This document shows, piece after piece, positions 1,351 to 45,887 of a stretch of DNA of 45,887 nt. The notes under the pieces were generated by a model. The model was given only the letters and a program-made list of their open reading frames with translations. It was not told the origin of the DNA and searched no databases. Positions within the stretch are counted from its first letter, which is position 1; each line of letters opens with the position of its first letter. Made by a program: the position numbers and the translations under genes. The DNA is taken from IMG/VR virus record IMGVR_UViG_3300009285_000018, positions 1-45,887 of that record; one strand, given 5' to 3'. Origin of the DNA: a virus.

Positions 1351-1394
1351 TGTGGATAACTGTGCTTGACAAACAATTCCTAACAGAATATGTT
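1351..1394 (+). promoter_or_regulatory. DnaA-box 9-mer followed by a sigma70-like promoter
   Basis: TGTGGATAA (1351..1359), N6, TTGACA (1366..1371), N17, TATGTT (1389..1394). The next ATG is at 1416. Confidence 0.55.
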
Positions 1395-2607: not shown

Positions 2608-2622
2608 CCCCTCAATAAAAAT

Positions 2623-3182: not shown

Positions 3183-3186
3183 AAAC

Positions 3187-3762: not shown

Positions 3763-3767
3763 ATTTT

Positions 3768-6598: not shown

Positions 6599-6642
6599 AT
6601 GTTTGCGGCCATAATAAGCGACGAAAGTACAAGGATTTCTAA
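6178..6642 (+). CDS. HNH homing endonuclease with NUMOD3-like repeats
   Basis: Repeats GSIPWNKG and GRTPWNKG, plus SEETRKKIGLSGIG. HNH core is CAKCGS...LVAHH...NGIIVCRKCHIKIHH. GTG start. It is in frame with the upstream fragment across a single TGA. Confidence 0.85.
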   Translation: MAKAGRKKGSIPWNKGLKGIYHIWPNGRPPISEETRKKIGLSGIGRTPWNKGKPYFEIRGDRNPNWKGGITGEDQTLRSRIEFKNWSKTVFKINDKKCAKCGSKKDLVAHHKKSFKKYVSLRYDSSNGIIVCRKCHIKIHHVCGHNKRRKYKDF

Positions 6643-9613: not shown

Positions 9614-9665
9614 GGTCCAATTATACTATGGTAAAATGATGGTATCAAATCAGTATTGTGGATAA
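9614..9665 (-). promoter_or_regulatory. DnaA-box plus TAGTATAAT promoter for the primase/ATPase operon
   Basis: Read on the minus strand: TTATCCACA (9665..9657), N28, TAGTATAAT (9628..9620), N6, ATG (9613). Confidence 0.6.
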
Positions 9666-9677: not shown

Positions 9678-9848
9678 ATGATTCCTAATAAAGACAAAAA
9701 GGCTATTTTATACAAGAAAATCAAGGATTTGCACAAGCTCGGATGGAGTATGGATGAAATCGTAGAATTGCTTTCCGTTTCCAAGTCAACGGTCTTTTTT
9801 GCAATTAGTGGTCGAGCAAAAAGGAAATTAAAAATTAAAAAGAAATAA
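9678..9848 (+). CDS. small HTH DNA-binding protein
   Basis: The segment GWSMDEIVELLSVSKSTVFFAISG resembles an HTH. The C-terminus is basic. I used the ATG at 9678 rather than the GTG at 9666. Confidence 0.55.
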   Translation: MIPNKDKKAILYKKIKDLHKLGWSMDEIVELLSVSKSTVFFAISGRAKRKLKIKKK

Positions 9849-11641: not shown

Positions 11642-12706
11642 ATGAAAATTCTAATTACGGGAATTTGTGGATTCATTCCACATCATCTTACGGAACATAT
11701 TATAAAGAATACTGATTGGGAAATAATTGGATTAGATAATTTAACATATGCCTCGAGGGGCTTTGATAGATTGAGAGATATTAAGGTTTACAACGACAAA
11801 AGGGTAAAAATTTTTACCCACGATATTACTCGTCCAATTTCTGAAGAGTTATTAAGAGAAATAGGAGAAGTTGATTATATCTTACATTTAGCAGCAAATA
11901 CCCACGTGGATAACTCCATAATTGACCCTGAGCCCTTTGTAATGACAAATGTGGTTGGAACTATGCATATGCTCGATTTCGCGCGTAAGCAGCTAAATTT
12001 GAAGCATTTTCTCTACTTCTCCACGGACGAGATATTCGGGCCGGCTCCAGTGGAAGTAGCGTATAAAGAGTGGGATCGGTATAACTCCGGCAATCCTTAT
12101 TCTGCGTCAAAGGCTGGCGGAGAGGAGCTTTGTTTGGCATATGCCAATACTTATCATATCCCGATACTCATAACTCACACTATGAATGTTTTTGGAGAAC
12201 GCCAACATCCGGAAAAATTCATACCAAAAGTAATTCGTGCGGCTCTGGACAGCCACATTATTCCAATTCATTCCGATAAAACCAAAACCGTTGCTGGATC
12301 CCGTATGTGGATTCACGCGCGGAATGTGGCAGCTGCGATTCTGCATCTTTTGGAATATACCTCGCACGATTCCAGTATTGTAGTCCCGCGTCCGACCTAT
12401 TGGCGTCCGGAATATGCGGATAAGTTCAATATTGTTGGAGAACGGGAAGTGGATAATCTTGCAATGGCGAAATTGATACATAAGATAGTGATGGAAACGG
12501 TCAAAGAACAACGAACTTTTAAATACGAAATGGTTGATTTCCATTCGAGCCGCCCCGGGCACGATTTGCGTTATGCGCTTGATGGTTCAAAAATGAAAGC
12601 CATGGGGTGGTCGTTACCCATGGGATTTGAAGATTCGTTAAGAAAGACGGTTGAGTGGACCGTCCAAAATCCAAAATGGCTAAATATAATTTCTCAATCC
12701 AAGTAG
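11642..12706 (+). CDS. rmlB: NAD-dependent sugar epimerase/dehydratase, dTDP-glucose 4,6-dehydratase-like
   Basis: Contains ILITGICGFIP (GxxGxxG), STDEIFG and YSASKAGGE (YxxxK). Length is 354 aa. Confidence 0.75.
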   Translation: MKILITGICGFIPHHLTEHIIKNTDWEIIGLDNLTYASRGFDRLRDIKVYNDKRVKIFTHDITRPISEELLREIGEVDYILHLAANTHVDNSIIDPEPFVMTNVVGTMHMLDFARKQLNLKHFLYFSTDEIFGPAPVEVAYKEWDRYNSGNPYSASKAGGEELCLAYANTYHIPILITHTMNVFGERQHPEKFIPKVIRAALDSHIIPIHSDKTKTVAGSRMWIHARNVAAAILHLLEYTSHDSSIVVPRPTYWRPEYADKFNIVGEREVDNLAMAKLIHKIVMETVKEQRTFKYEMVDFHSSRPGHDLRYALDGSKMKAMGWSLPMGFEDSLRKTVEWTVQNPKWLNIISQSK

Positions 12707-12933: not shown

Positions 12934-13167
12934 ATGGAACTCGAAAACATCCAAAAACCGCGTCTTTATTCGACGAGAGAGGTCGCCAAATTCATGGAGA
13001 TAGGGTATTATACCCTTTTTCGTATGTTGCGAGCCAAAAAAATTAAAGCCATAAATGTAGCCCGATCCGGCACAAAGCCGCTTTATCGGTTCAGCGCGGT
13101 GGATGTGCAGGAGTATTATGATACGCTACCTCGTACCAATTTCAAGTTGGAAGACGTCCACAAATAA
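12934..13167 (+). CDS. excisionase/MerR-like HTH (HTH_17-type) DNA-binding protein
   Basis: The segment LYSTREVAKFMEIGYYTLFRMLRAKKIKAI fits the Xis-type HTH pattern. Confidence 0.6.
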   Translation: MELENIQKPRLYSTREVAKFMEIGYYTLFRMLRAKKIKAINVARSGTKPLYRFSAVDVQEYYDTLPRTNFKLEDVHK

Positions 13168-15288: not shown

Positions 15289-15340
15289 ATGAATATATTA
15301 TACCACAACTTGAACATTTTACCTTGTTGGTTGTGGATAA
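15289..15340 (-). promoter_or_regulatory. DnaA-box plus extended -10 promoter of the lysis cassette
   Basis: Read on the minus strand: TTATCCACA (15340..15332), N26, TGGTATAAT (15305..15297), N8, ATG (15288). Confidence 0.6.
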
Positions 15341-22800: not shown

Positions 22801-22987
22801 GGGTGTTAATAGTTTCTCCTACTCTTACTTCAATGGTTTGTTGCCGGCAACGCGGACATTCATCGAAACAAATCGGACACCATCCGCTCCGGCACTCTGG
22901 ACACCATTCTCCTTTCATTTTACCACACTTTTCACACATATCAAAATCCGAGGGTTTTGGGATCTTGCAGTGGAAACTGCCGCCCAT
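22784..22987 (-). CDS. small cysteine-rich zinc-finger protein
   Basis: CEKCGKMKGEWCPECRSGWCPICFDECPRCRQ contains four CxxC pairs. I used the ATG at 22987; the track start is a TTG. Confidence 0.45.
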   Translation of the reverse strand: MGGSFHCKIPKPSDFDMCEKCGKMKGEWCPECRSGWCPICFDECPRCRQQTIEVRVGETINTHEKIG

Positions 22988-23744
22988 TCTCGTCAATATG
23001 CTTTACGAATATATTTGTGTCTATAAGAAAAGGATACTTCATTTTTTGGTATTTCGTCCAGCCGGCCTTCTCAAAAAATTTATCCTTTATAACCCGGTCG
23101 CACCATGCCAAATCCGAAGTTCCGGAGACCAAATGGAAGCTGCCGGTTTCGGGATCAAGCCATTTTTTTTCCGGCATCTCAAACACCCGGCGCGTGCGTT
23201 CCCCTCCAACCATATATTCCGAACTTTCTTCCCACATGGCTTTTAAAATAGAGCAGTGGATCAAAAGGCATCCGGTCGGCGCGCCATCAACCCACACCAA
23301 GTCCCCCATTTTCCAGTCCTGATAAAATGATTTTCCCCGACCACGATACACCAAAGGCTCGGGTGGATTTGATTTTGTAAAATAAAGTCCGGATACTACC
23401 GGCACCTTGCCGTCGCGCATATATTTGTTCAGGCGTACGAATGCGTCCGGTGGCAATAGATTGTCCGATTCAACCAAAAGCAGCCATTCCATTTCTTTTT
23501 CTATGGCGGCCCGCACAATCAAATTCTGCGCGTCAGCCACAAGATAACGGAGCGGCGCAAAGGTGGAAATCCATTGAATCATGTCAGTTGCGGACCAGTT
23601 GGTCGGAATAATTTGTCCGTAGCGCGCCATCACCCATTCCATACGTACTGTGCCGGTCGAAGGCGTGCCAATCAAAAGCCGGTTGGTCCATGGACCCTTA
23701 TTTTCAAGGATCAGATTGTTTTCCATTTTGAGAAGTTTACTCAT
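22941..23744 (-). CDS. GT-A fold glycosyltransferase (family 2-like)
   Basis: Contains LLLVESDNLLPPDAF (a DxD-like motif), VVSGLYF and PTGCLLIHCSIL. Confidence 0.55.
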   Translation of the reverse strand: MSKLLKMENNLILENKGPWTNRLLIGTPSTGTVRMEWVMARYGQIIPTNWSATDMIQWISTFAPLRYLVADAQNLIVRAAIEKEMEWLLLVESDNLLPPDAFVRLNKYMRDGKVPVVSGLYFTKSNPPEPLVYRGRGKSFYQDWKMGDLVWVDGAPTGCLLIHCSILKAMWEESSEYMVGGERTRRVFEMPEKKWLDPETGSFHLVSGTSDLAWCDRVIKDKFFEKAGWTKYQKMKYPFLIDTNIFVKHIDENGRQFPLQDPKTLGF

Positions 23745-24261
23745 AATATGATGAATCTTCTTTACGCTTCTCTAAAACAACTTCCATGTTTCCGTTTAAA
23801 TGCCATGTGTTGACAAGAATTTTCCATGGTTTCGGTTTATAAATTTTGTAAAGTCCCTGTCCCAAAGGATCAAAATAATCCCACGTGGATTCGTTACACG
23901 GATTGCAGTGCGTGGGATCTTGAAAATATCCATGGGAGCCGGCGTAGGGCGTAGAAATCATGAATTTACCCCCATATTTGAGTACGCGCCACACCTCATC
24001 CATAAAGCGCAAAAACACCCCGCCATGCGGGTTTATATGCTCAACAAGGTGCGATGCTATGGCTAAATAAGCGCAACGGTCAGGAAGAGGCCAAGGGAAG
24101 CGTTCTACATCGTGCGCAACATCCACCCCGGGAAGTTTACGGTTATCAAGACCAACAAAATCAGGCTGCTTATTGGCGCCGCATCCAATATCTAATTTTA
24201 TCCCTTGATCGTGTTTCCGCAATAAAGCGGCAATCAAAGGACTCATCTTTTCTTTACTCAT
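23737..24261 (-). CDS. class I SAM-dependent methyltransferase
   Basis: Contains motif I LDIGCG, and LKYGGKFMISTP. There is no DPPY/NPPY motif, so it is not an obvious DNA N6-methyltransferase. Confidence 0.7.
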   Translation of the reverse strand: MSKEKMSPLIAALLRKHDQGIKLDIGCGANKQPDFVGLDNRKLPGVDVAHDVERFPWPLPDRCAYLAIASHLVEHINPHGGVFLRFMDEVWRVLKYGGKFMISTPYAGSHGYFQDPTHCNPCNESTWDYFDPLGQGLYKIYKPKPWKILVNTWHLNGNMEVVLEKRKEDSSYYE

Positions 24262-24265
24262 CTTT

Positions 24266-24757
24266 TTAAGAAAATTGGATTTGATATGTCACGTTGACAT
24301 TCTGATTGGTCGCACAGGAACTGGAAGTATAAGTGTTACCGGAAAAAAGCGTGGCATTGGTTGAAGTCGTATTAAAAAGTCCGACATTGGAAAGATTCAC
24401 CGATGCGGTAACGAAAGAATCGGAACTTGCGAAAGCCGCGGTAAATTGAAGTGTTTTAGAAGACGTAATTGAGGTTGATCCGGTTTTGCGTTGCGTGGAT
24501 GACATTATTTCGCCAGCCAATCCGGTTTCAGCGGCTAAGGGCGCGCCACCCGTTCCAAGCGCGATATGAGTAATAGTTTTGGCTCCCGATGCGCCAGCAA
24601 GACCCTTGCAAAGATAATCTTGAAATCCAAGATTTACAACTAAATTTTTTACCCAGCCGGAATCTCCCGCAATTTTTTCCATACTTTTTACGTTCGGCTC
24701 GGAGATTTGAAGCCGGAAAAATCCGTGAACTTTGATCGTGTCTTTATTTTTTGTCAT
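24266..24757 (-). CDS. hypothetical Ser/Thr-rich protein
   Basis: The internal ATG (MTKNKDTIKVHG) was chosen. The C-terminal half is rich in S, T and N (NTTSTNATLFSGNTYTSSS). Confidence 0.45.
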   Translation of the reverse strand: MTKNKDTIKVHGFFRLQISEPNVKSMEKIAGDSGWVKNLVVNLGFQDYLCKGLAGASGAKTITHIALGTGGAPLAAETGLAGEIMSSTQRKTGSTSITSSKTLQFTAAFASSDSFVTASVNLSNVGLFNTTSTNATLFSGNTYTSSSCATNQNVNVTYQIQFS

Positions 24758-24758
24758 A

Positions 24759-25037
24759 CTATTCAAGTACCAGATATGCAACATTAGCGGTCCCAAGAAC
24801 CTTAACGTGCATACCTTTAGTAAATTTATGATCTACGTGATAGATTTCCGACCTTTTGGGGGCGGCGCTTGGCACCACGGCATAAAAAACAACATCGCCG
24901 GATGCGTTTCCATCACGAATTTTTACGGTAGCGTTAGCCGCCGAGGGCGTAATCAGTACGCCTTTAAGGCGAACCTGTTGAGTTGTAGGAATGGTTTGCT
25001 TTCCAACCGTTCCTGAGATTGCAACTTCGAGTAACAT
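24759..25037 (-). CDS. hypothetical small protein, beta-rich
   Basis: 92-aa ORF with its own TGATATAAT promoter. Confidence 0.45.
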   Translation of the reverse strand: MLLEVAISGTVGKQTIPTTQQVRLKGVLITPSAANATVKIRDGNASGDVVFYAVVPSAAPKRSEIYHVDHKFTKGMHVKVLGTANVAYLVLE

Positions 25038-25055
25038 AGTAATTGTATTATATCA
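25038..25055 (-). promoter_or_regulatory. extended -10 promoter, TGATATAAT
   Basis: Read on the minus strand: TGATATAAT (25055..25047), N9, ATG (25037). It shares the 12-mer CGTGATATAATA with the promoter at 20069..20080. Confidence 0.5.
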
Positions 25056-26148
25056 CGGTTCTTTTTACTCGCGCAAGGGCTGTCCTTGCGAGAATTTGAG
25101 AATACACTTCAAAGATTTTTTGAGCATTGTCTTGAATCCAGTGTTTTGAAATCCATTCTTTATTGTGTCGCGCCATCTCCCTCCGTTTGTTCGGATGATC
25201 CACAAGTTCTATAAGCATATTATACCACTCTTCATAAGTATTCGCCAAAAGCGCATGAACCCCGTTATCCACAGCCTCCTTGTAGGGTATCACGTTTGAC
25301 GCCACAATCGGTATCTGAGCCGCCGCGTATTCCTTGATTTTAAGGTCTGATTTACAGTTCCCGAATGAATTATTGATAACCGGCGCCACCGCTATATCCC
25401 ATCCTTTGGAACAAAGCACTTGTGGATAAATTTCAATCGGTTCTCCGGGATCATTCCGCAACTCACCCTCGAATCCACAGGCCGGACAAACTTGATTTAG
25501 TACATTCAAATTAAATACTCCTCCAAGTTCCTGATGCGTCATCCCCATTGTTTCAAACCGGATATTCGGTTTGCGCTCTTTCACAATTCGCTCGATGACT
25601 TTTGAAATCATCTTTAAGTCGTCCGCATGCGCATTGCCACCCATCCAACCAATTCTAATTTTTCCATCGGCTGGCTTGATTATCGGATTGTCCCATAAAT
25701 CTTTATTTAGATAGTTCGGCACAACGTAAATGAACGGATTGTATGGAAAATATTCACGGGCGAGTTGCGGAGTGGAAACCGTGACGCCGGCCGCGACTTT
25801 CGTCATCTCCATCGCGCGATGCACATAAAGCGTTCCCGGATTCCACGCCGGAAATCCCCAAACATTTCGTGGAGATACATGATGCACAAAATCATCAATT
25901 TCAGTAATGAAAGGAATTTTATGGAATAAAAGTTTGTGTAATATTTTTGTGGCATTTTCGCTTCCCATCTCCTGCATCACCACAAGATCCGCGGCATTTA
26001 ACTGGTCATCAGTCGGCATTTGCATAACAATTTCGGTTTCAGCAAGACCCATACGTTTAATAAAAGTTGCTGGTTGCTTACAGCGGAAGTAGCCACATCC
26101 GCCGTCATCTCGAACTACATATAAAATTTTAGGAATTTTATTCGTCAT
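25048..26148 (-). CDS. GT-B fold glycosyltransferase (family 1/4-like)
   Basis: C-terminal IPIVASNVIPYKEAVDNGVHALL resembles the GT4 E-x7-E region. Length is 366 aa. Confidence 0.6.
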   Translation of the reverse strand: MTNKIPKILYVVRDDGGCGYFRCKQPATFIKRMGLAETEIVMQMPTDDQLNAADLVVMQEMGSENATKILHKLLFHKIPFITEIDDFVHHVSPRNVWGFPAWNPGTLYVHRAMEMTKVAAGVTVSTPQLAREYFPYNPFIYVVPNYLNKDLWDNPIIKPADGKIRIGWMGGNAHADDLKMISKVIERIVKERKPNIRFETMGMTHQELGGVFNLNVLNQVCPACGFEGELRNDPGEPIEIYPQVLCSKGWDIAVAPVINNSFGNCKSDLKIKEYAAAQIPIVASNVIPYKEAVDNGVHALLANTYEEWYNMLIELVDHPNKRREMARHNKEWISKHWIQDNAQKIFEVYSQILARTALARVKRTVI

Positions 26149-26603
26149 TTTATGGCTTCGATTACAAGTTCGTAGGGATTTTTTTCAAACTCATTTGGCA
26201 CGCTGTCAAACCAAATAATTTGTTTCTCACCGGCAAATCCCGCGGCCGAAAGATAACGGATCAAACTATCGCGTGTCATATATATCGCGTGTGTAAATTC
26301 CCGGTTGAATGAATCGATGTCTATTCCTCCACCCACGAACTCACGGCATAAAACTTCAAAATCGTCCACCTTAATCCACAATTTTCCTCCCGGCTTCAAA
26401 CATCGATACCAATTCACAAGAACCTCGCCCACTTCTTCGAGGAAATAACGGTCAAGCACATGGAACGAATAAATCGCATCAATGCTGTTTTCCCGAAAAC
26501 CAAGTTTTTTTAAATCATATAAAATATCAACCTCCGGACCGGGTTGGTTCCAGACCGTAGTGACGTTCGGAACTATTCGAGTTGGGCTAAGTTGAATTTT
26601 CAT
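26145..26603 (-). CDS. SAM-dependent methyltransferase-like protein (Methyltransf_11-type)
   Basis: Contains LKPGGKLWIKVDD and a short class I fold. Motif I is not obvious. Confidence 0.45.
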   Translation of the reverse strand: MKIQLSPTRIVPNVTTVWNQPGPEVDILYDLKKLGFRENSIDAIYSFHVLDRYFLEEVGEVLVNWYRCLKPGGKLWIKVDDFEVLCREFVGGGIDIDSFNREFTHAIYMTRDSLIRYLSAAGFAGEKQIIWFDSVPNEFEKNPYELVIEAIK

Positions 26604-27370
26604 AATTGACCGTAGGGTTGTGATTCCAAACTAAATCCGCGACCCCTGTCTTTCCATAAAACAAGTTTATTTCCGAAATCCGAGAGGTACTCTTTATGGA
26701 TCGCCTTTCCCTTCCTTTGACGCCACTTATCGGCATATTTGGGCCAATATTTAATATAGTAATCACAGGTTTTTTCCCACGCTTCAATACTGAATCCTTT
26801 TCCGAAATGTTTGATATCTCCATGCACCGGAATCTGTATTCCGGGTTCAAGCGTAACTTCACGCTGATCCGGAAGATGGTATTTCAAATATGGCGAGTTC
26901 CGGAAAAAGAATACTATCGTACGGAATTCGGGACCAAACCATTGCCGCTCTTTATATGATTTTTCAGAATCTTCGGGTGTAATATGCGCATCATACAAAC
27001 GGCAAGCAATCGCCTTAATGTTCGGGTCCAAAAACAGTCCGTATTCAGTGAAATTATAAATATGCTCGTCGGCGTCAAAATATACGAACCAATCATCCGG
27101 CCCGGCAAACTGTTGCGCCCGAGCGAGTACCATTTGCCGGTTGAACCAATCGGATTTTTCTCTGTCCGGATCCCAAAACGAACCCTCAATTACTTCCTTT
27201 ACTGCTGGATGGGATCGCGCAATTTCCACCGTTCGATCCGTGGATACGTCATCATAAACATAGATTCCTTCGGTACAAAAAGATTTCCAATTATCCAGCG
27301 TATCTTTTAGGATCGCTTCTTCGTTACGGACCTTGGTAAGTCCCCTGATTTTAGGAAGTTCATGAAACAT
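26600..27370 (-). CDS. family 2 glycosyltransferase
   Basis: Contains VRNEEAIL, YVYDDVSTDRTVEIA (compare the DDGSTD motif) and FDADE. Confidence 0.65.
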   Translation of the reverse strand: MFHELPKIRGLTKVRNEEAILKDTLDNWKSFCTEGIYVYDDVSTDRTVEIARSHPAVKEVIEGSFWDPDREKSDWFNRQMVLARAQQFAGPDDWFVYFDADEHIYNFTEYGLFLDPNIKAIACRLYDAHITPEDSEKSYKERQWFGPEFRTIVFFFRNSPYLKYHLPDQREVTLEPGIQIPVHGDIKHFGKGFSIEAWEKTCDYYIKYWPKYADKWRQRKGKAIHKEYLSDFGNKLVLWKDRGRGFSLESQPYGQL

Positions 27371-28400
27371 CTTTAGCTCTGCGATATGGCCTTAATTCCG
27401 ATTCGACTGCAACCGGACCTTCAACTAACTCTTTAGCAATCCGCAAAAAACTTTCTGCCGCTATCACCGCATTATGTTCACGTTTGACGTAGTTTTTCCC
27501 CCACTCAATCGTTTCCGGATTGTAATATCGATCAATCTCCGCAATCAATTCTTCCGGAGTCATTAAAACATTTCCAGAATTCCGGCCGGAGAAATTGGCG
27601 TATTTAATTGCTTGAATATTGTCTTCACGTACTATGCCGGCCGTTCCCCAACGCCCATGCACCACCCCAATCCGTCCAGCCGCAATTCCCTCAAGAACAC
27701 TCCGTCCCATTCCCACCACAATATCCGAGTCCTCAATCGCGCGAGTAACGTCAAAAGCCGAACTGAAATTCATTCCTATTGCTGCGAGCGTGGCTCCGTA
27801 ATGTTTAGCAACCGTGCGTATAATTTCAACTTCGGAGTCGTTTTTCAAATTATAGTTTGAATTAAATAAAATCTGTTTCGGTTTATTTTCGGTAATTTGA
27901 CGCTTCAAATTGAATCGCTCGCAATCAATGAAATTCCGGATGATAGCGGAATCGATATTGTAATCCTGCTTTAATTTTTCCTGCACCTCTTCCGACACCG
28001 AAACGAATTGATTCACTCCTGCGGAAAGAGACGGATGCTCCGGCGCTTTTTCTCCATTTTCCAAAAAGTGCATTGTGCCATGAACCACGCAAATTATCGG
28101 AGTTTTAGGATAGCGCAACCGGAGGTACTCAACAATATGATGATGTGCCGCAATAATCACGTCGTATTCGTGGCTTACTTTTTCCTCCAAGACATACGAA
28201 AATGGGCGCGCGTCTTCCAGATCAAAATTATTGTAGGAACGGATATCTTTTTTCTCAAGTTCATGCGAAATAACCCCGAGATCGGGGCTGAAACATACCA
28301 CATAGTGTCCCATCTTTTTTAATTCGGTCGCGAGAGTAAAAATCCACGTTTCACTTCCCGCAAGCATGGCAAGCGAATTGTTGCCAAGAAGTATTCTCAT
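27360..28400 (-). CDS. GT-B fold glycosyltransferase (family 4-like)
   Basis: Contains MRILLGNNSLAMLAGSETW and GMGRSVLEGIAAGRIGVV. Confidence 0.6.
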   Translation of the reverse strand: MRILLGNNSLAMLAGSETWIFTLATELKKMGHYVVCFSPDLGVISHELEKKDIRSYNNFDLEDARPFSYVLEEKVSHEYDVIIAAHHHIVEYLRLRYPKTPIICVVHGTMHFLENGEKAPEHPSLSAGVNQFVSVSEEVQEKLKQDYNIDSAIIRNFIDCERFNLKRQITENKPKQILFNSNYNLKNDSEVEIIRTVAKHYGATLAAIGMNFSSAFDVTRAIEDSDIVVGMGRSVLEGIAAGRIGVVHGRWGTAGIVREDNIQAIKYANFSGRNSGNVLMTPEELIAEIDRYYNPETIEWGKNYVKREHNAVIAAESFLRIAKELVEGPVAVESELRPYRRAKDVS

Positions 28401-31110: not shown

Positions 31111-31167
31111 ATGTGCTTTTATTATACCACGTTTTATAAACAAGCGCAGACAAGCGCCTGTGGATAA
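31111..31167 (-). promoter_or_regulatory. DnaA-box plus extended -10 promoter of the scaffold/capsid operon
   Basis: Read on the minus strand: TTATCCACA (31167..31159), N29, TGGTATAAT (31129..31121), N10, ATG (31110). Confidence 0.6.
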
Positions 31168-38814: not shown

Positions 38815-40515
38815 TTAACGATTAGGAACTGGAGCCGCCCCGGCCGCTTGCTGATTTTGCGCCGCCACCGCTCCAGATTGTGAAGCCGCCGGCGCGTTAC
38901 CGGGCGCGGGAGATGGAGCCTCACCGGGTTGGTTTTGACCCTCTTGCAAGCGCGGCAAAAGCGCTGGCTGGCGCGCGACTTGCGGACCCAAAATCGGATC
39001 GGACAAATCTTTTTTCATCAATTTCTTTTCCAGATGCGGCTGTTGCACTCCGACTTCGCGCATAGCCGTATCCTGTGAGATCAAACCGCTTTGGAATTTA
39101 TTTATGGTATCCACAATCTGTCGGATAAGAGTGGATGGTATGTAAACTTTATTGCGGTAATCTCCGTTGATTATTTTTTTGGTTTCCGGATAGTAAAGTT
39201 CGTAAAGTTTTAAAATATTGCGATTAAGCGCGGTCAGGGCCGCGCGATACTGCTTGGATCTCGGATTCAATTTCCGTATCGTGCCTTGAAACGCTAAAGC
39301 GAGCGCCCGGCCGGAAGCGTTGGCAACTTGCGAGGAAGAGAGAAGAGCTTCGGATACGCCGGAGATTTCAATAATTGCATTGCGGCGCGACTTGGCGTAA
39401 GTGTCGGTGATGTATGGATCGCCGGTTTTTTCAAACGCATGAAGTTCCCCGTCTTCCGGCACGGAATAAATCCGCGAAAGTCCGGCAACAAGCGCTTGCA
39501 TGCCTTCCACGTTTTTCCCCCAAAGGTTGACCGATGAAATCCATTTCAATAAATTCGCTAAATCATTATTGGTGCGATTATGCGACATCTGCGGATCAAG
39601 CACGTCTTCAAGATCAGATTTGCCGAATGGATGATTTGGCGTATAAGTATTTTTTACATGAAGCAGCGGAACAAATCCCCAGTTGTGAAAATAATAATCA
39701 AGCAATTTATCGTTTATAAAAATCGCAAAAATCTTGTCAGTCCAGTATTCCTCAATATCCACCATCGGCTGATTAGTGTCCGGATCGGAACGGCCAAGAT
39801 TAGAAGTTTTTATGGATGCCTCGATTGTAACTCCTTTGGCGCGCGCCGCCTTGCCATAAAGCATATTGGCTTTGGTCCATGAAATTCTTGAAGAATCAAT
39901 AAATCCCAAAAGCCGCTTGAATCCGCCATCGGCAAAAATCGGACGAATGGCTCCGGGATTTTCCACGTGCGCAAAGCGGATGCGCCATTGGCCGGCCGCG
40001 TCCGGAGATACCGGATTGCCGTCATCATCCACTTTTTCCATCCATGGCCCCTTAAGAAATCCGTCGCCGTAAAGCGATCCGCCCTTGGACCACGCGTCGA
40101 ACTCAACCTCAAAATCATTGTCTTCCCAAACCTTCAAAACCAATTTTTCCTTGAGTTCGGCTTTTATTTCCAAAAGTTCATCGGTCGGATCATCAGTTGG
40201 ACAATTCACTTCCGGAGGATCGTCGAAAACAAGAGACGAAATGTTATCCACAATCACCGCGCAATAATTGTCCGTGCGCTGGGACGCGCCCGGAGGTTCG
40301 TTTTGCGACCAATGGTCGCCCCGGTAAAAACGCTCAAGAAACGTGTATCCGGCAAACTGATAGCCAGTGGCGCCGGCTTTGGCCGCCACGCCCGATACAC
40401 GCGCAGTCAAATCGTGTTTAGTGTCGTCTTTGTGTCCGATAAATTCCTTATTCAGCTCAAACTCAAATTTGAGCCGTTCCGCATCCGTAGTAAATTCTTT
40501 TTTTGAGAGTGGCAT
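38815..40515 (-). CDS. portal protein candidate
   Basis: About 566-aa ORF immediately downstream of the large terminase, with a P/A/Q-rich C-terminal tail. I used the ATG at 40515; the track start at 40521 is a TTG. Confidence 0.65.
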   Translation of the reverse strand: MPLSKKEFTTDAERLKFEFELNKEFIGHKDDTKHDLTARVSGVAAKAGATGYQFAGYTFLERFYRGDHWSQNEPPGASQRTDNYCAVIVDNISSLVFDDPPEVNCPTDDPTDELLEIKAELKEKLVLKVWEDNDFEVEFDAWSKGGSLYGDGFLKGPWMEKVDDDGNPVSPDAAGQWRIRFAHVENPGAIRPIFADGGFKRLLGFIDSSRISWTKANMLYGKAARAKGVTIEASIKTSNLGRSDPDTNQPMVDIEEYWTDKIFAIFINDKLLDYYFHNWGFVPLLHVKNTYTPNHPFGKSDLEDVLDPQMSHNRTNNDLANLLKWISSVNLWGKNVEGMQALVAGLSRIYSVPEDGELHAFEKTGDPYITDTYAKSRRNAIIEISGVSEALLSSSQVANASGRALALAFQGTIRKLNPRSKQYRAALTALNRNILKLYELYYPETKKIINGDYRNKVYIPSTLIRQIVDTINKFQSGLISQDTAMREVGVQQPHLEKKLMKKDLSDPILGPQVARQPALLPRLQEGQNQPGEAPSPAPGNAPAASQSGAVAAQNQQAAGAAPVPNR

Positions 40516-40569
40516 AGTCAATTATATTATACTACCAAATCCGCTTCTCTGGTATATCGATTATCCTCA
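40516..40569 (-). promoter_or_regulatory. TAGTATAAT promoter of the portal gene, with an 8/9 DnaA-box-like site in inverted orientation
   Basis: Read on the minus strand: TAGTATAAT (40534..40526), N10, ATG (40515). The terL TAG stop is part of the element. TTATCCTCA lies on the plus strand at 40561..40569, 26 nt upstream of the promoter element. Confidence 0.45.
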
Positions 40570-43354
40570 CAGGCACTTTTTGCCCGCTTTTCTGCGCAAA
40601 TATATCCTCCACCCGATTGGCAAATGGATTAAAGTCAAATCTCGTAACCGTGTTTTTAAACATTTTCCGCTCCAAGTACCATATCCCCATTCCCAAACAC
40701 ATCACGTCATCCTGTTCCAATTTTTTGTCCGTTATGCCTTTTTCCGGATTGTACTGGTAATTTCCCATCTGCTCTTCCAGCTGCGTAATGTGATACCCGC
40801 GAATTGCGCCGAATTCCGGATTCAGTTCAATAACTTTATTTTCCGGATCGAGTTCGGTTTTGCGATTGCGCGTCATGGCCATCAATAAACAAAAAAGCAT
40901 ATCCGCCTTGTCGCCGCCGGCATTAAAATCCAAAACATCCGTCATCCCCATTTCTACCAGCATCTTTTTTATAATCACCCCGCCCATGGCGCCCGAATCG
41001 TGCAGAAATTTCGCGCCGTTCCATTCCCGCTGCAGCATACGCGCCCGAGCCAGCACCGCGAATGGACTGCCGCCCCGAATTTCTTCCCGAAAAGAAATCC
41101 GCACTTTCCGCAAATGCTTCGGAACTTTTTCATTCAAACATTCCGTATAATCCAAAACGTAAAAAACAGTCGGATCTCCGGTGTCGGCAAATCCCCAGTC
41201 GCCAATCACTAAATACTTATGTTCATACTTCGGCATTTCCGGCACATCCGCATCCCATATGCGCTCAATCAAAATTGAATCAAACATTTTTTTGCCGGTA
41301 GTCACGAACTCGCCGAACATCACCTGCCGGTACTTGGCCGGATCGGTGGATCGAATCTGCGCCGCAATCCGGTCACGTTCGACTGGACCCAAAAATATAT
41401 TGTCCGAAATTTTTCCCAAAAGCGTCCACCATCCCTCCTCGCCCTTCAAGCCCAATTTCGAAATATGAAAAAAATATTGGTGCGACGGCTTATCCACTTC
41501 CGGAGTGGAAACCAAATCCAGCGGCCCGCCAAAGTCAATTAGCCGCGACATGATCTTTGCCGGCAATTCCTGCTTCAAGTGCAGCGAGTTGCCGCTCCAC
41601 GCCACTCTTCCGTTCCTACGGACCATTAGTGTATGATTTTTTTCCAAAGCAAGACACGCAATGTTCCCCGAGTAAAAAACCTTTTTTACGGAAGCATGAG
41701 CAGTATTTTTAGGATGATGGTTGATACGCGGAAACTGTCCACGTTTTCTGAACTGAATCCGATAAAAATCCAGTGAACCTTTTATTTTTCTCCCCTTAAT
41801 AAAACCTCCCGATCCTCCTCTGTCCGCTTTCAAAGACGGGACGAGGCCAATACGCAAACAAAGCTCCATCACATCATCGGCAAGGCCCTTGCTTGTCGTG
41901 CCGTATATACCGCAACCCTTTCCACTTTTCTTATATGAACCGTCACCGAGAATCAGTCCGTCAAAAAGAAGCCGGAGCAAACGCGGAGAAAGGTTTAGCG
42001 TCTCTCGCGGAATTCTTTTGTTTTCAGCAAGACATGGAACAAAATACTTAATAAATTCCGCGAGTTGTTTGTCAAAAACATGATATCCGACTTTGTTGTT
42101 TAAACTCCAAGAAAACCCCATCGAATCAAGCAGTTTTGGAATCACATAAAATGCCTTTCCTTTTTCAGTTTGTGAAATTGTGATTCGACCTTTCCACACC
42201 GAACCTTCCGAAATGTAAAGCCCGAGAAAAAGCAGAAAATCTTCAACTACAACTTTGCGTTCTCCACGAACATATAGTCCACTTCCGGACATCTTATTTC
42301 TATACGCGGGAATCATAAAATAAGCCGATTCACGACCGGTTGCCGTAAAAGACTGGTTCAACTTAAACTGTTTTCCGATAAGGTTCCCCGCTTCCTCAAA
42401 AGCAAACGATCCATATTGATTTGCCCCTTTGCTTTTTGCAACCAGCATCTTATGGTTCGGGGTAACAAGAAGGTCCGTAAACTGTTGTTTCTCTCCTCCG
42501 AACTGGATCATGTCGCCTTCGTACGGCTCGTTAATAACACTCTTCACTTTAACTTTTTCCACCAATCCGGTTTCAATATTTATTGACGGAACCAATTCGC
42601 CGATAGCAACATTATAAAATTTCTTCCAACCAAGATCAGTAAGAACTTCCGTGTCGTCGCTATAACATTGCGCGCACTCATCATATGAAATATACAAATA
42701 CGGAGTCCCGGCAAGCGACGAGGCCTGATCTTCTCCGGTGGGAACCGCCTTATACGAAGTCCCGTTCTTAAAAAAAATCTGCCGTTTTTGAACACTGTCC
42801 GAAACATAGAAATCCGGGATGATACATTTATTATTTATCGTGTTCCCGGCAATCGTAGAGATGAGTTTCGACGCCAAAATATCCACAATATAATCAAATC
42901 CGGCTTGCGCCTGATTAGAGTGCGGACTTAAATTCAGCGTGCCGCAGCGGATTGCGGCCCATTCTTTGCCTTTGGCGCGGACTCCAACCTTATAATAATT
43001 GTACCAAACATGTTTTACCGAAGTGACAAGCGTTTTACCCCAACGGTTTGACGGCACCAGAATATTTTTTGAAAAATCCGGATTACGCGCCAACAGCTCA
43101 TCAAACTCTCCGCGCGATTTCCATGTTCCAAGCAAAGCCCCCAGATCGTACGCTTGCTCGGATTGAGTGCGCGTTGTCATCCAAAGCCATAATTTCTGCC
43201 CGTCGTGCAATTTCACACCCAAAAGATTTTCCGCAAAAAATACCGGATCCTTTTTTCCGGCACGCACCTTGTCTAAAAACTCGCGTTGCTCCGGCGTCAA
43301 ATCCGCAAGCAATGCTTCACGGCTCATTTTTTCTATATTAGTATGATTCCCCAT
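40532..43354 (-). CDS. terL: terminase large subunit interrupted by an intein
   Basis: Contains a Walker A-like RWGKT, Walker B LYISYDE, the STP motif after the intein, and nuclease-domain acidic motifs (VIGDWGFADTGDPTVFYVLD). The protein is 940 aa in total, or 580 aa without the intein. Confidence 0.85.
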   Translation of the reverse strand: MGNHTNIEKMSREALLADLTPEQREFLDKVRAGKKDPVFFAENLLGVKLHDGQKLWLWMTTRTQSEQAYDLGALLGTWKSRGEFDELLARNPDFSKNILVPSNRWGKTLVTSVKHVWYNYYKVGVRAKGKEWAAIRCGTLNLSPHSNQAQAGFDYIVDILASKLISTIAGNTINNKCIIPDFYVSDSVQKRQIFFKNGTSYKAVPTGEDQASSLAGTPYLYISYDECAQCYSDDTEVLTDLGWKKFYNVAIGELVPSINIETGLVEKVKVKSVINEPYEGDMIQFGGEKQQFTDLLVTPNHKMLVAKSKGANQYGSFAFEEAGNLIGKQFKLNQSFTATGRESAYFMIPAYRNKMSGSGLYVRGERKVVVEDFLLFLGLYISEGSVWKGRITISQTEKGKAFYVIPKLLDSMGFSWSLNNKVGYHVFDKQLAEFIKYFVPCLAENKRIPRETLNLSPRLLRLLFDGLILGDGSYKKSGKGCGIYGTTSKGLADDVMELCLRIGLVPSLKADRGGSGGFIKGRKIKGSLDFYRIQFRKRGQFPRINHHPKNTAHASVKKVFYSGNIACLALEKNHTLMVRRNGRVAWSGNSLHLKQELPAKIMSRLIDFGGPLDLVSTPEVDKPSHQYFFHISKLGLKGEEGWWTLLGKISDNIFLGPVERDRIAAQIRSTDPAKYRQVMFGEFVTTGKKMFDSILIERIWDADVPEMPKYEHKYLVIGDWGFADTGDPTVFYVLDYTECLNEKVPKHLRKVRISFREEIRGGSPFAVLARARMLQREWNGAKFLHDSGAMGGVIIKKMLVEMGMTDVLDFNAGGDKADMLFCLLMAMTRNRKTELDPENKVIELNPEFGAIRGYHITQLEEQMGNYQYNPEKGITDKKLEQDDVMCLGMGIWYLERKMFKNTVTRFDFNPFANRVEDIFAQKSGQKVPVRIIDIPEKRIW
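41588..42667 (-). mobile_element. 360-aa intein with a LAGLIDADG homing-endonuclease domain inside terL
   Basis: It starts with CYSDDTEVLT (residue 230), straight after the Walker B segment DECAQ. Block B is LVTPNHKMLV. The two LAGLIDADG-type motifs are LFLGLYISEGSV and LLFDGLILGDGSY. It ends with VAWSGN, followed by Ser as the +1 residue. Confidence 0.8.
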
Positions 43355-43369
43355 GGTTCGACAAAAAAT

Positions 43370-43897
43370 TTATTCTACGGTAGCGGCATCTTGAAACGCA
43401 TGTTCGAATTTCGCTTGCTCACGCGAATCTTCACGCACTTTTCCTAAAGCATGAATTCGGGAGTCTTGGGATTTCATGGCTTTGAAAATCGAATCAGACA
43501 TAATTCGCTGCTCGTAAGCGGTCAGCGAATTCGGATCGTTGCGATACTTCGTCATTAAATCTTCATAAAACTTCGCGCCCAAATTCAATGCGTAAGAAAT
43601 TCCGCGCTGCGTAGCCTCTTGATTGGAAACAATATTTCCGGTAAGACGAGTTTCTTGTTCTGTTGACGGAGTCAAAGAACCCGCGGCGCGTATCCGGATG
43701 AGTCCGGCGGCGGTTTTGGTCCTTTGAAGATATGAAAACCAAGAACTCGCACTATACCCGGGGACAAGTGGTACAATTTCTTCGCGAAAAAACTTGGCGG
43801 CATTTACTTTTCCGTCATGCTCGAGTAAGTTGTTATACTTTTCGAGGATACGGACGTAGTGTATGCTGGAAGTGAATTTTGAATTCCAACGTCTCAT
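43370..43897 (-). CDS. small terminase subunit candidate (position only)
   Basis: About 175-aa ORF directly upstream of terL. The start is placed at 43897 because TGGTATAAT lies inside the longer track ORF. Confidence 0.35.
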   Translation of the reverse strand: MRRWNSKFTSSIHYVRILEKYNNLLEHDGKVNAAKFFREEIVPLVPGYSASSWFSYLQRTKTAAGLIRIRAAGSLTPSTEQETRLTGNIVSNQEATQRGISYALNLGAKFYEDLMTKYRNDPNSLTAYEQRIMSDSIFKAMKSQDSRIHALGKVREDSREQAKFEHAFQDAATVE

Positions 43898-43945
43898 GCG
43901 TATATTATACCATAATGCCACCAAAAACATATACCCTGTGCATAA
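43898..43945 (-). promoter_or_regulatory. DnaA-box variant plus extended -10 promoter of the packaging/late operon
   Basis: Read on the minus strand: TTATGCACA (43945..43937), N24, TGGTATAAT (43912..43904), N6, ATG (43897). Confidence 0.55.
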
Positions 43946-44236
43946 ACCACTTGCATAGATTGATTTTTTTTGCTAAAATTTATGCAGAAAAAGGTCTTTA
44001 AAAATAAATTTTTGACCGAGGGCAAATCCTCTATACTTCTTGACTTACAAAATAAGTGGTAGCACTACCACTAAACGTAAAATGAAAACTACATTAAAAA
44101 AAACTAAAAATAAATAATGAAACTGATTTATAGCGGGGGGCGCGGGCGGGGCGCACGGAAAAAACAGGACATTAAAAAAACACACCGGCGGGCGGGTTTT
44201 TTTGTTACAATAAAAAAAGAATAAGTCAATAGCAAC

Positions 44237-44310
44237 TGTGGATAAGAGGGTTTGCAATATGTTGCAAGATATAATACTATAGAGATATGAAAGGTCGTGG
44301 GTGTGGATAA
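44237..44310 (+). promoter_or_regulatory. Two direct DnaA-box 9-mers flanking a plus-strand early promoter and a TTGCAA-TATG-TTGCAA dyad
   Basis: TGTGGATAA (44237..44245), N6, TTGCAA (44252..44257). TATAAT is at 44270..44275 and TACTAT at 44275..44280. A second TGTGGATAA is at 44302..44310. The next ATG is at 44330. Confidence 0.55.
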
Positions 44311-44329
44311 CTAAAAAGCAAATAAAAAA

Positions 44330-44494
44330 ATGAGGCAAATAGCAGAAATAAAAAATGCCGGCGTTGAAGTGTGGACGGATAAATTCGGTAACTACACACT
44401 AAAAATTGGTACGCGCGTTGCGGCCGTTGTATCCGGAGACGATACGAAACGCATCAATGAGCTTACTAACTTTTTGAAAGGACTTGAAAAATAA
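44330..44494 (+). CDS. hypothetical small protein (54 aa, below the ORF-track cutoff)
   Basis: Translated by hand as MRQIAEIKNAGVEVWTDKFGNYTLKIGTRVAAVVSGDDTKRINELTNFLKGLEK. It is the first plus-strand ORF after the divergent intergenic region. Confidence 0.45.
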   Translation: MRQIAEIKNAGVEVWTDKFGNYTLKIGTRVAAVVSGDDTKRINELTNFLKGLEK

Positions 44495-44755
44495 CATGGC
44501 CAAAATCTACGAAGAAGAATTGAGCGAAGATGAAGAAATATTGGCCGAAGAATTGGGGCTCGGGGACTTTATAGAACATAAAGAAGAATCGGAAATATAG
44601 CCGTTGATCGCGCGCGTTTCACCGCAAAGGCATGAAGCGCGCGCCATTGAGCGGCAGTTATTGCAAGCGGCCGCCGTTCCTTGAAAAAAGATGAATCAAG
44701 AAGCAATTTTTGAAACCGCTAAAAAATTGGTCGCACCGTACGGCCTGAAAATACC

Positions 44756-44989
44756 ATGACAATCTACGAAATCAAAGAGAGAACACAAAAAAGCGCGCCA
44801 TACTTCTTTACAAAAAATGCCCTGAAATTTTTCGGCCAAACCATGCAAAGCTTCAAGATACATAAAATAGATGCCGAACATTACGAAATTACCGCACCCA
44901 TGAAGGATAAGGACGGCCGAAACATGGGAACAACCCGCCGCGTTTTTAACGCCATTACAAATGAACTTGAAACAACCCGCCATGATTAA
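44756..44989 (+). CDS. hypothetical protein
   Basis: 77-aa ORF. Confidence 0.5.
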   Translation: MTIYEIKERTQKSAPYFFTKNALKFFGQTMQSFKIHKIDAEHYEITAPMKDKDGRNMGTTRRVFNAITNELETTRHD

Positions 44990-45335
44990 ATACAATAAAG
45001 AAAAACGCGCCTTCATTGGCCGTATAAAATCACTGGACGGAGAAAGATGGATCGCCATTGAACATAAACTCGGCATTGACTCATCACCGCCAACCATGCA
45101 AGAAATAAACGATCTGCAAATCCGAATATATACCATGATCGGAGGAGGCATGCTCGGAGAATTCGCCATGACGCAACCCGCTGATTTTTATATTGATTTA
45201 CGCGTTGGCCGCCTCCCATATCCTAACCGCCGAATATATCACGCCGTGGAAATTTTACGCGGCCTTGCGCTATATCTCGGGCTCGATCCCTCCCGCCTAA
45301 AAAAGCCGGAATTTCGCGGCTGGTGGATCACATAA
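44982..45335 (+). CDS. hypothetical protein
   Basis: The track ORF is 44961..45335. The ATG at 44982 gives an ATGATTAA overlap with the upstream stop. A terminator follows. Confidence 0.5.
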   Translation: MIKYNKEKRAFIGRIKSLDGERWIAIEHKLGIDSSPPTMQEINDLQIRIYTMIGGGMLGEFAMTQPADFYIDLRVGRLPYPNRRIYHAVEILRGLALYLGLDPSRLKKPEFRGWWIT

Positions 45336-45388
45336 ATAAAAAAAGTGTAAAATTACCCGCACGCGCTACAAGCGCATGCGTCAAAAAC

Positions 45389-45417
45389 ACCCGCTAATAG
45401 CTTGCACGGGTTTTTTT
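45389..45417 (+). terminator. rho-independent terminator
   Basis: Stem ACCCG (45389..45393) / CGGGT (45407..45411), then a T7 run. The loop CTAATAGCTTGCA resembles the loop of the terminator at 928..962. Confidence 0.55.
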
Positions 45418-45586
45418 GTTACCGCCGCCGCAAGCTACCGGCCGGAGGGATCGCCGCGGCCGAACGCGCCGCCCGATCCCGCCACTCCGCCACGCCGTTT
45501 TTACCCCCAAATCCACTCCGACACAACAGAACACCAAGCGAAATTTTTGATTCATCTTTTTCCACAATCGCCACAAAATAGTACAT

Positions 45587-45623
45587 CCCGTATTGCGCTG
45601 AAATCCATTCTACGCAATACGGG
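45587..45623. promoter_or_regulatory. perfect 11-bp palindromic arms (operator or hairpin candidate)
   Basis: CCCGTATTGCG (45587..45597) and CGCAATACGGG (45613..45623), separated by 15 nt. It lies 38 nt upstream of the ATG at 45661. No T-run follows. Confidence 0.6.
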
Positions 45624-45660
45624 GCTGACTATTGCAAGCGGCCAGTACCTTAACAACAAC

Positions 45661-45887
45661 ATGAAAATCCAACTCAAAGAAGCAACCGCAGACCTCACGA
45701 AACTTCTCAAAAGAGCAAAAATCCGCCTTGATGATTGGTACACCCAAACCGACAAAATCAATGAAGCCATACAGGAAGTAGGACTTGTGATCTGTCTTGA
45801 TTGGCACTGTACGGAAATGGAAGGCCTTATAGAAGTTTCCTACTATTCCAACAAAATCTATCGCCGCATAATCATTGATTCGGATTC
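45661..45887 (+). CDS. N-terminal part of the wrap-around hypothetical ORF (continues as 78..183)
   Basis: ATG at 45661 (MKIQLKEATADLTKLLKRAKIRLDDWYTQTDKINEAIQEVGLVICLDWHCTEMEGL...). The frame is open to the end of the window and in phase with 1..183. Confidence 0.55.
   Translation, partial: MKIQLKEATADLTKLLKRAKIRLDDWYTQTDKINEAIQEVGLVICLDWHCTEMEGLIEVSYYSNKIYRRIIIDSD
45811..45887. repeat. Second copy of the 77-bp terminal direct repeat
   Basis: Exact match to 1..77 on direct reading. Confidence 0.95.

Follow-up and report, generated by a model that had tools for sequence, protein, structure and literature searches.

DnaA is a known transcription factor (PMC8203912), and at the promoters it regulates (dnaA, nrdAB and others, as well as lambda pR) a single consensus box is found in or beside a promoter of the sigma-70 type (PMC8203912, PMC3985674). 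At the lambda origin, transcription is coupled to initiation (PMC3985674). In T5-like phages, conserved DnaA boxes are located in the injection-stop region, and a role other than that of an origin has been suggested (bioRxiv 10.1101/866236). Lactococcus phage c2 (Ceduovirus) has an experimentally defined origin, a non-coding stretch of the divergent early/late region with one of the first two early promoters on either side; the length of its non-coding PE1 transcript matters, and the origin replicates a plasmid without phage proteins (PMC7150918). Here we describe a divergent region, at positions 43898-44329 of IMG/VR virus record IMGVR_UViG_3300009285_000018, in which DnaA boxes lie beside the predicted promoters and a conserved non-coding unit lies between the two early ones. 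In ColE1 and pBR322, priming takes place from an R-loop formed by RNA II, and a DnaA box is used for helicase loading; RNA II is about 550 nt long and highly structured, and priming needs RNase H and Pol I. The lambda packaging site cos is made up of cosQ, cosN and cosB, in this order, and is located upstream of the small-terminase gene.

The window (the whole stretch of DNA analysed, 45,887 nt) is the genome of an uncultivated tailed phage from groundwater: a circle of 45,810 bp plus a 77-nt assembly overlap, with near-identical contigs known from groundwater metagenomes. The late operon is encoded on the minus strand, from 43897 down to 14061, and portal, major head protein and large terminase are among its recognised genes. 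The early genes run on the plus strand from 44330 across the circle junction to 7627. Replication-type genes recognised in the genome encode an SNF2 helicase, a primase zinc-ribbon protein, an exonuclease and RusA. Nearly all genes are directed away from the divergent region, a stretch of 432 nt bounded by two start codons, ATG 43897 of the minus strand and ATG 44330 of the plus strand; an earlier interpretation made from the letters alone (the sequence-only reading) had assigned both of them correctly. Relatives were gathered through homologues of the 175-aa protein encoded first in the late operon, through a portal profile and through a DNA pattern, yielding more than 20 distinct related phages (handles beginning with L are ours, for other assemblies). 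The intergenic alignment contains 13 sequences, the window and 12 relatives, and all transcription starts are predicted, 7 nt past each -10 element. Taken as a whole, we read the region as an early/late switch with promoter-coupled DnaA boxes and with a transcription-primed origin unit of the c2 kind, a combination that we consider quite possible, if short of probable.

DnaA boxes beside the predicted promoters

Judging from the alignment, 43898-44329 is a divergent early/late control region with three promoter-like sites kept in position in the relatives: a late promoter and two early promoters, P1 and P2 (Table 1). The early/late switch proposed in the sequence-only reading agrees with this arrangement. 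The late -10 element ends 6 nt upstream of the start of the 175-aa gene, and the mRNA is predicted to be leaderless; the same TGnTATAAT-N6-10-ATG arrangement is found at 15288, 20062, 25037 and 31110. P1 aligns with TTGACA/TTGACT-16/17-TAnAAT in all 13 sequences, its -35 element being TTGACA or TTGACT in most relatives. At P2, a TTGCAA dyad overlapping a TATAAT had been described. Copies of TTGCAA are present at 44252 and 44262 and a TATAAT at 44270, but the arrangement is a direct repeat of a palindrome, the first copy lying 17 nt upstream of TACTAT (44275-44280). The motif at the predicted P2 start, AAAGGTCG, is also found on the plus strand of L056 and L059; CGACCTTT is present on the locus strand in L011, L014, L016, L017 and L018, and the related AAAGGTCA in L013. 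AAAGGTC was rejected as a genome-wide operator, as it is not enriched genome-wide.

The region contains two perfect DnaA boxes, TGTGGATAA, in equal orientation and 65 bp apart (44237 and 44302), and a variant box, TGTGCATAA, at 43937; all three had been located from the sequence alone. L036 likewise has two boxes 65 nt apart. The perfect 9-mer is present in ten copies in the 45.8-kb genome, versus 0.33 expected, so two boxes within 65 bp are not due to chance. In the window and 32 related loci together (442 kb), 44 perfect boxes are found where 3.8 are expected, an approximately ten-fold excess; 200 permuted control 9-mers gave a mean of 4.2 and a maximum of 19 copies in the same sequence. At least 16 of the 44 boxes are located in the 9.9% of sequence that is non-coding (p = 2e-6), despite the use of an open reading frame (ORF) caller that over-calls genes.

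The boxes are also placed at a regular distance from promoters. In the window, seven promoter-like sites have a box centred between -49 and -44: the late promoter, P1, P2, the promoter at 1366-1394, the primase promoter and the internal late promoters before 15288 and 31110. From the predicted starts, the variant box is common to the late promoter and P1, its centre lying upstream of both, 44 bp from the late start and 45 bp from that of P1. The order box, 1-13 nt, -35, 17 nt, -10 is repeated in L013, L017, L018, L029, L040 and L043, in an analysis covering about 20 kb of each relative. Among the 13 aligned sequences, boxes with at most one mismatch are present on the P2 side in ten (chance about 0.056 per region) and on the P1 side in five, four of these at a fixed 47-49 nt before the unit; at the very place of the variant box, L013, L018 and L023 have such a box, 47-49 nt before the unit. 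Flanking boxes are also found in the new family members L053, L056 and L057.

A poor -35 hexamer is typical of activator-dependent promoters. With the quality of the P1 -35 element classed by eye from the alignments, it is non-consensus in seven of eight cases with a box and in two of nine without (one-sided Fisher p of about 0.012). The boxes may bind host DnaA, which would act there as a transcription factor, probably as an activator, because a box tends to go with a poor -35 element at P1. Alternatively, the 9-mer could be the target of a regulator encoded by the phage, and would then be identical to the DnaA box by coincidence or mimicry; candidates are the helix-turn-helix proteins encoded at 9678-9848 and 12934-13167. 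A 56-aa helix-turn-helix gene adjoins the inverted box pair 9591/9657, a second protein of this type is encoded, and the boxes at promoters behave in an operator-like way. However, the motif is the exact universal DnaA consensus, and the tolerated variants TTATGCACA, TTATCCCCA, TTATCAACA and TTGTCCACA resemble weak DnaA boxes (bioRxiv 10.1101/866236). The enrichment moreover reaches relatives whose early genes are unrelated and whose portal is only about 50% identical, and a DnaA-type DNA-binding domain is found in none of the phage proteins scanned, making such a regulator unlikely. The absence of this domain from the scanned proteins, together with early genes that differ between relatives, makes host DnaA the simplest binder.

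As in the DnaA-regulated promoters described before, a box fitting TTATNCACA is found within or adjoining a promoter, and it is conserved in the relatives. Unlike in those cases, its use is systematic: in one phage, and across its clade, it stands at about -45 on early promoters, late promoters and those of the non-coding unit; we know of no described case of such clade-wide use and found none in the literature. T5 shares with this phage the conservation of DnaA boxes in a non-coding region, but there eight boxes are arranged in pairs 3 bp apart inside inverted repeats, whereas here single boxes stand beside promoters (bioRxiv 10.1101/866236). If the boxes bind DnaA at promoters, they would provide a simple means of sensing the replication-initiation state of the host, suited to phages whose hosts are slow-growing subsurface bacteria. 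More far-reaching, and in our view unlikely, is the idea that the clade has wired host DnaA into its whole programme, the boxes at about -45 activating early, late and origin-transcript promoters and both expression and R-loop-primed replication being gated by DnaA-ATP; if true, the phage would sense whether its slow-growing host is ready to replicate.

The non-coding unit between P1 and P2

A predicted non-coding transcription unit extends from P1 to a terminator. Its profile matches 43986-44205 (nhmmer) and exactly one site per genome in the relatives, always between the terminase-side gene and the early genes; the unit is present in at least 20 relatives, and the profile found no paralogues elsewhere in the genome. 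L014, which was outside the training set of the profile, is still matched (E = 8.5e-26), and a public gene call overlaps the unit there; L001/L022 carry the unit as well. From the P1 -10 element to the terminator, 219-227 nt are found in 12 phages. Blocks I and II (Table 1) are separated by exactly 26 nt of unconserved spacer in every pattern-matching phage. The heptamer is located 91-95 nt past block II in seven phages, and an ACAGRR heptamer is found at 91-101 nt in 11 of 12 aligned sequences. Each relative with a terminator has its own distinct hairpin, after which the plus strand carries a T-run with no interruption. A minus-strand promoter for the unit was considered and rejected, as none is conserved in that direction.

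There is no conserved ORF in the unit, the plus-strand ORFs being 14-43 aa long and different between phages. The publicly annotated 35-aa ORF at 44117-44224 (plus strand) is found in this phage only and is probably spurious too, as had been suspected of a 97-aa minus-strand ORF across the region; relatives have only non-conserved ORFs of 21-58 aa there, in agreement with that suspicion. Rfam 15 gave no match at gathering score in the whole window and only chance-level matches in 43850-44400, and a tRNA search found nothing. As far as can be judged from the alignment, primary sequence, spacing and strand composition are what is conserved, and the unit, found once per genome upstream of the terminase genes and with precise spacing, appears to be a new non-coding element. 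It is this element, and the clade-wide boxes at about -45 of promoters, that we regard as the findings worth keeping.

The A-rich tract at 44073-44132 has an A+T content of 58-84% in the relatives, a purine content of 66-81%, and 47-63% A against 10-24% T; over the whole unit, the RNA-like strand is 64-74% purine. The G-rich block, which the sequence-only reading had noted at 44135-44151, extends over 44133-44154, and GCGGGCGGG from it recurs at 44188-44196. A purine-rich RNA-like strand ending in G-runs favours an RNA:DNA hybrid over duplex DNA. In hybrid-over-duplex stability, estimated with nearest-neighbour parameters, the unit belongs to the top 0.03-0.5% of genome windows, with the G-rich block among the 0.03% of 60-nt windows most favourable for a hybrid.

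Because the phage c2 origin is the closest known layout, we rank a possible transcription-primed origin first of three readings of the unit, though without confidence. The P1 unit would work in the manner of c2: an RNA started at P1 and running through the purine-rich and G-rich segment would stay behind as a stable RNA:DNA hybrid that might prime or open the origin. Helicase loading may be assisted by DnaA at the adjacent box, as it is in pBR322. Switch and origin would then be combined in one region, through a mechanism mediated by transcription rather than an oriC-like one. In both c2 and this phage, non-coding DNA is located between divergent early and late blocks; PE1 and PE2, c2's first two early promoters, flank the origin, as the predicted P1 and P2 flank the 219-227-nt unit; and in c2 this interval contains neither a ribosome-binding site nor any ORF of at least 100 bp, similar to the lack of a conserved ORF here. 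In contrast to c2, DnaA boxes stand at both P1 and P2, the RNA-like strand of the unit is rich in purines and includes a G-run, and no RNA structure is detectable. A blastn search with 43300-45887 against 50,697 records of cultured phages gave no match, the origins of c2, bIL67 and 923 included; the likeness is therefore a functional analogy only and not family membership, and by its sequence the phage is of a lineage unrelated to c2. As in ColE1/pBR322, the G-rich segment has a promoter upstream of it and a DnaA box just downstream, and a persistent hybrid could be held there; unlike in those plasmids, no antisense RNA and no comparable structure are seen. Should the P1 unit be a transcription-primed origin, the design of c2 would reach far past the dairy phages, and block I, 26 nt, block II, about 93 nt and ACAGAGC would be an origin signature for uncultivated phages.

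Several observations weigh against a switch with promoter-coupled boxes and a transcription-primed origin. P1 and P2 of the window each match 8 of 12 consensus positions and are unlisted by a simple promoter scan, which found no excess of promoter-like sites in the region; they were assigned by aligning them with stronger promoters of the relatives. About 20 of the 44 perfect boxes are inside genes with no obvious promoter, still about six-fold above chance, so promoter coupling is not the whole story; DnaA titration or internal promoters may be a further role of the boxes. The terminator is missing in L050, L053 and L056. The folded predicted P1 RNA is not unusually stable (z = -1.1), and the consensus fold of 12 homologues consists of two tiny hairpins with none of seven pairs compensatory, on which ground a highly structured P1 RNA was rejected; this fits a primer or hybrid role, but also a purely DNA-level site. 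The hybrid stabilities are estimates. The global GC-skew minimum lies elsewhere, at about 2,087, and by its sequence a second non-coding hub at 910-1412 is an equally good candidate for an origin or for a cos/packaging site. Finally, the blocks stand beside the terminase genes at fixed spacings of 26 nt and 91-95 nt, flanking a GC-rich block, as might be expected of a packaging site.

In a cos or pac site, the G-rich block would be cut by terminase, blocks I and II, located towards the terminase genes, would bind small terminase and ACAGAGC, on the opposite side, would be a termination element, in the manner of lambda cos. The unit and the protein family of the gene in the small-terminase position occur together, the unit always directly upstream of that gene; the 175-aa protein is predicted to begin with a winged-helix-like domain and to continue in long helices, a compatible fold; there is no conserved RNA structure; and three assemblies break inside the unit. 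However, these contigs end at three different places (44208, near the heptamer and in block I), for which reason contig ends were rejected as evidence of cohesive ends. Compared with lambda cos, the position directly upstream of the terminase genes and the GC-rich block between conserved blocks at fixed spacing are alike. The differences are that the site is strand-asymmetric here, in a conserved purine/pyrimidine pattern that has no role in a duplex cutting site; that blocks I and II differ and are not repeats of one binding site; that the sequence of the G-block is not conserved; and that a conserved promoter and terminator bracket the unit. A fold search with the predicted 175-aa structure gave no significant match, terminases included, and the protein matches no family. 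Nor could the large terminase be typed: comparison with phage proteins, PDB and Pfam gave nothing usable, no cultured phage having a similar terminase, and the packaging type is not inferable from it. We consider a packaging site quite unlikely.

The P1 transcript might also be a regulatory RNA without origin function, the boxes then being transcriptional only. As a leader in cis, it would gate read-through into the early genes by anti-termination or attenuation at 44174-44203; in trans, the unstructured purine-rich RNA would bind a protein. A conserved promoter, 5' motifs, two small hairpins and a heptamer before the terminator, with early genes in the same direction, are consistent with such a role. 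Further early-region terminators are found at 925-960 and 45385-45417, and the tail CGGGTTTTTTTGTTAC is common to the terminators at 44193-44208 and 45407-45422. The changes in block II of L011 and L059 are G-U-compatible on the plus strand, and distant relatives carry clearly structured RNA at the equivalent position. On the other hand, there is no covariation (no compensatory changes are seen in block II) and no stable fold, and three members lack the terminator. P2 is located past the terminator in every phage examined, so read-through is not needed. There is also no conserved candidate for an RNA-binding regulator, the early proteins being different between relatives. A regulatory RNA of this kind is possible but doubtful, and the transcription-primed origin is kept as the first-ranked reading.

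The distant relatives (about 50% portal identity) do not have the unit of the window; at the same place, upstream of the terminase-side gene and on the late-gene strand, they have a structured RNA of about 200 nt (loci in Table 1). Of its 24 predicted pairs, 14 are compensatory, and its conserved strings include GTTATTACTTCCGG and CCGCTTATTAATGG. It has no match in Rfam and may represent an undescribed phage RNA family.

Table 1. Positions of features in the window and, in the last two rows, in distant relatives
Feature	Position	Strand	Basis or remark
Start codon of 175-aa gene, small-terminase position, first late-operon gene	43895..43897	-	Public gene calls; 22 homologues align from start
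Late promoter, extended -10 TGGTATAAT	43904..43912	-	TG(G/T)TATAAT conserved here in all relatives
Variant box TGTGCATAA (TTATGCACA on minus strand)	43937..43945		Fits consensus TTATNCACA
P1, first early promoter: TTGCAT, 17-nt spacer, (TGc)TAAAAT	43951..43979	+	Alignment
Predicted non-coding transcription unit, P1 to terminator	43986..44203	+	Family-conserved, single-copy
AAGGTCTTT, conserved motif, predicted 5' end of P1 transcript	43991..43999	+	Alignment and promoter comparison; resembles AAAGGTCG after P2
Block I: T-run, then small hairpin GAGGG-caaa-TCCTC (44018-44031)	44004..44033	+	Consensus TTTTTTATGAGAGGGCTAACTCCTC
Block II: hairpin AGTGGTA-gcac-TACCACT	44055..44072	+	Consensus GGTAnnGCTACCC
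A-rich, purine-rich tract, loose 7-nt periodicity	44073..44132	+	84% A+T
G-rich block GCGGGGGGCGCGGGCGGGGCGC	44133..44154	+	G > C here in all 12 phages, sequence variable
ACAGGAC heptamer	44164..44170	+	Family consensus is the near-invariant heptamer ACAGAGC
Intrinsic terminator, bidirectional type: A7, imperfect GC stem, T7	44174..44203	+	Inverted repeat I5
Perfect box TGTGGATAA	44237..44245		6 bp upstream of P2 -35, centre -46
P2, second early promoter: TTGCAA, 17-nt spacer, TACTAT	44252..44280	+	Aligns with TTGACA/TTGCAA-17/18-TAAGAT/TATAAT in relatives
AAAGGTCG, conserved motif at or just past predicted P2 start	44290..44297	+	
Second perfect box TGTGGATAA	44302..44310		In predicted P2 leader, about +15 to +23
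First early gene, 54 aa, no known family	44330..44494	+	Not conserved in relatives
Perfect box	1351..1359		6 bp upstream of TTGACA-17-TATGTT, centre -46
Inverted pair of perfect boxes	9591-9599 and 9657-9665		Centres -48 and -39; flank overlapping divergent promoters (primase operon / small helix-turn-helix gene)
Perfect box	15332..15340		Upstream of leaderless internal late-operon promoter, centre -46
Two perfect boxes, inverted (starting at 25265 and 25421)	25265..25429		In glycosyltransferase-like gene, no obvious promoter nearby
Perfect box	31159..31167		Upstream of near-leaderless internal late-operon promoter, centre -49
Perfect box	40244..40252		In portal gene, no obvious promoter nearby
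Structured RNA loci	L029 6700-6925; L040 6960-7190; L036 7310-7535; L027 2085-2325		
Structured RNA loci, continued	L033 2340-2575; L043 5575-5790; L037 6610-6845		

AT-rich stretches, GC skew and the hub at 910-1412

The sequence-only reading had seen in 43898-44329 the classic layout of a bacterial oriC, with DnaA boxes adjoining an AT-rich unwinding region; in an origin of this kind, host DnaA would oligomerise on clustered boxes and melt an adjacent AT-rich tract, onto which the helicase is loaded. Two perfect boxes and a consensus-fitting variant within 375 bp, and a tract of about 58 nt with 84% A+T in the same intergenic region, recall oriC; a local minimum of the cumulative GC skew at about 44,100, the direction of nearly all genes away from the region and the lack of a recognised phage-encoded initiator among the gene products also agree with it. 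We nevertheless find an oriC-like origin very unlikely. There are only two or three boxes, and the cluster is not specific to an origin, as eight further perfect boxes are present elsewhere in the genome and the boxes keep a fixed distance to promoters genome-wide. The perfect boxes are at least 85 nt away from the AT tract, with the G-rich block and the terminator in between, and there are no 13-mer or trinucleotide repeats of an unwinding element beside a box. What the relatives keep in the tract is the purine strand bias and not the A+T richness, and they mostly have one box per side. Two perfect DnaA boxes beside an AT-rich tract are insufficient to call a phage origin. A DnaA-trio unwinding system was considered separately and rejected, the box being too far from the GC block.

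The long A/T tracts noted in the sequence-only reading are part of the A-rich tract at 44073-44132; among the 60-mers of the genome this ranks only fifth in A+T content, the first being the one at 1173. Cumulative GC skew had been suggested as a check: its global minimum is at about 2,087, near the alternative location of 1150-1360 named in that reading, and its maximum at 13,827, the minimum at about 44,100 being a local one. The skew largely follows gene direction.

The 60-mer at 1173 belongs to the hub at 910-1412, a second conserved non-coding stretch that is at least as long as 43898-44329. The latter had been called the largest non-coding region of the genome, which is not clearly so: its 432 nt compare with 440 nt at 910-1349, or about 505 nt if the next gene starts at 1416. 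Within the hub are a terminator, at about 925-960, and a stretch rich in C and poor in G. An inverted repeat made of C8...C6 (1151-1171) and G7...G8 (1234-1260) encloses a core of TA repeats and poly-A, which is the 60-mer at 1173. The perfect box at 1351 is located 6 bp upstream of TTGACA-17-TATGTT. An equivalent hub is found in L009, L013, L016 and L017. The hub is nearer to the global skew minimum than 43898-44329, and its hybrid propensity is equally high. A 32-nt direct repeat (TCCGACAnAACAGAACACCAAGC..ATTTTT, 91% identical) is shared by two early non-coding stretches, at 1090-1121 and 45517-45548.

Other genes of the phage

No Shine-Dalgarno sequence is found at any gene of the window, and the sequence upstream of start codons is A-rich. 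At least six genes start 6-10 nt after a TATAAT (43897, 31110, 25037, 20062, 15288 and 9613), four of these with a TGn extension, and by their sequence they would be effectively leaderless or nearly so. Leaderless starts and missing Shine-Dalgarno sequences may help to narrow down the host. A portal profile search of reference genomes for the host gave no match, and a search with the element pattern gave a single match, inside a gene, which was discarded as chance.

In the early region, 18 mismatches and a 1-nt insertion are clustered at 44501-44645 in one otherwise near-identical assembly (L005). This patch covers a 34-aa early gene and looks like recombination or a hypervariable early gene. 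There are no informative single-nucleotide polymorphisms in the control region among the near-identical assemblies. A stretch of about 326 nt at 45336-45661, C-rich on the plus strand, is probably non-coding, with a terminator at about 45385-45417. The public annotation has a 205-aa ORF from 45376, of which the N-terminal half is of low complexity and Pro-rich; it is more likely that the gene starts at ATG 45662 instead. Five successive small genes (2229, 2419, 2623, 2958 and 3187) are located at 2205-3190 on the plus strand, each with the approximately 20-nt TTTTAACCCCTCAATAAAAAT directly before its ATG; TAACCCCTC is present in four copies, versus 0.1 expected.

The SNF2-type helicase (5551-7627, plus strand) is split into 204 aa and 342 aa by an HNH endonuclease gene at 6178-6642, whereas it is undivided in relatives (529-548 aa); the HNH gene starts with a leaderless GTG and is served by a TTGACA-17-TATGCT promoter of its own. 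The large terminase (40532-43354, minus strand) has 940 aa, whereas relatives have 580-607 aa. About 357 aa are inserted after ...YDECAQ; the insertion begins with Cys and contains a LAGLIDADG domain (E = 3e-8), and the host protein resumes with ...SLHLK. The insertion resembles an intein that carries a homing endonuclease and is located in the ATPase domain.

The CHC2 primase-type zinc ribbon forms the C-terminus of a 232-aa protein (8915-9613, minus strand). The gene of a 428-aa protein with no family match (7624-8910, minus strand) starts 4 nt past the 232-aa gene, and the same pair is found in L013. Host-like metabolic genes are located within 3561-4496, 11642-12706 and 22941-28400. A YfiH/Cu-oxidase_4 family protein, also found in relatives, and a sugar-nucleotide 4,6-dehydratase are encoded, and a run of genes inside the late operon resembles glycosyltransferases and methyltransferases, as judged from N-terminal sequence only.

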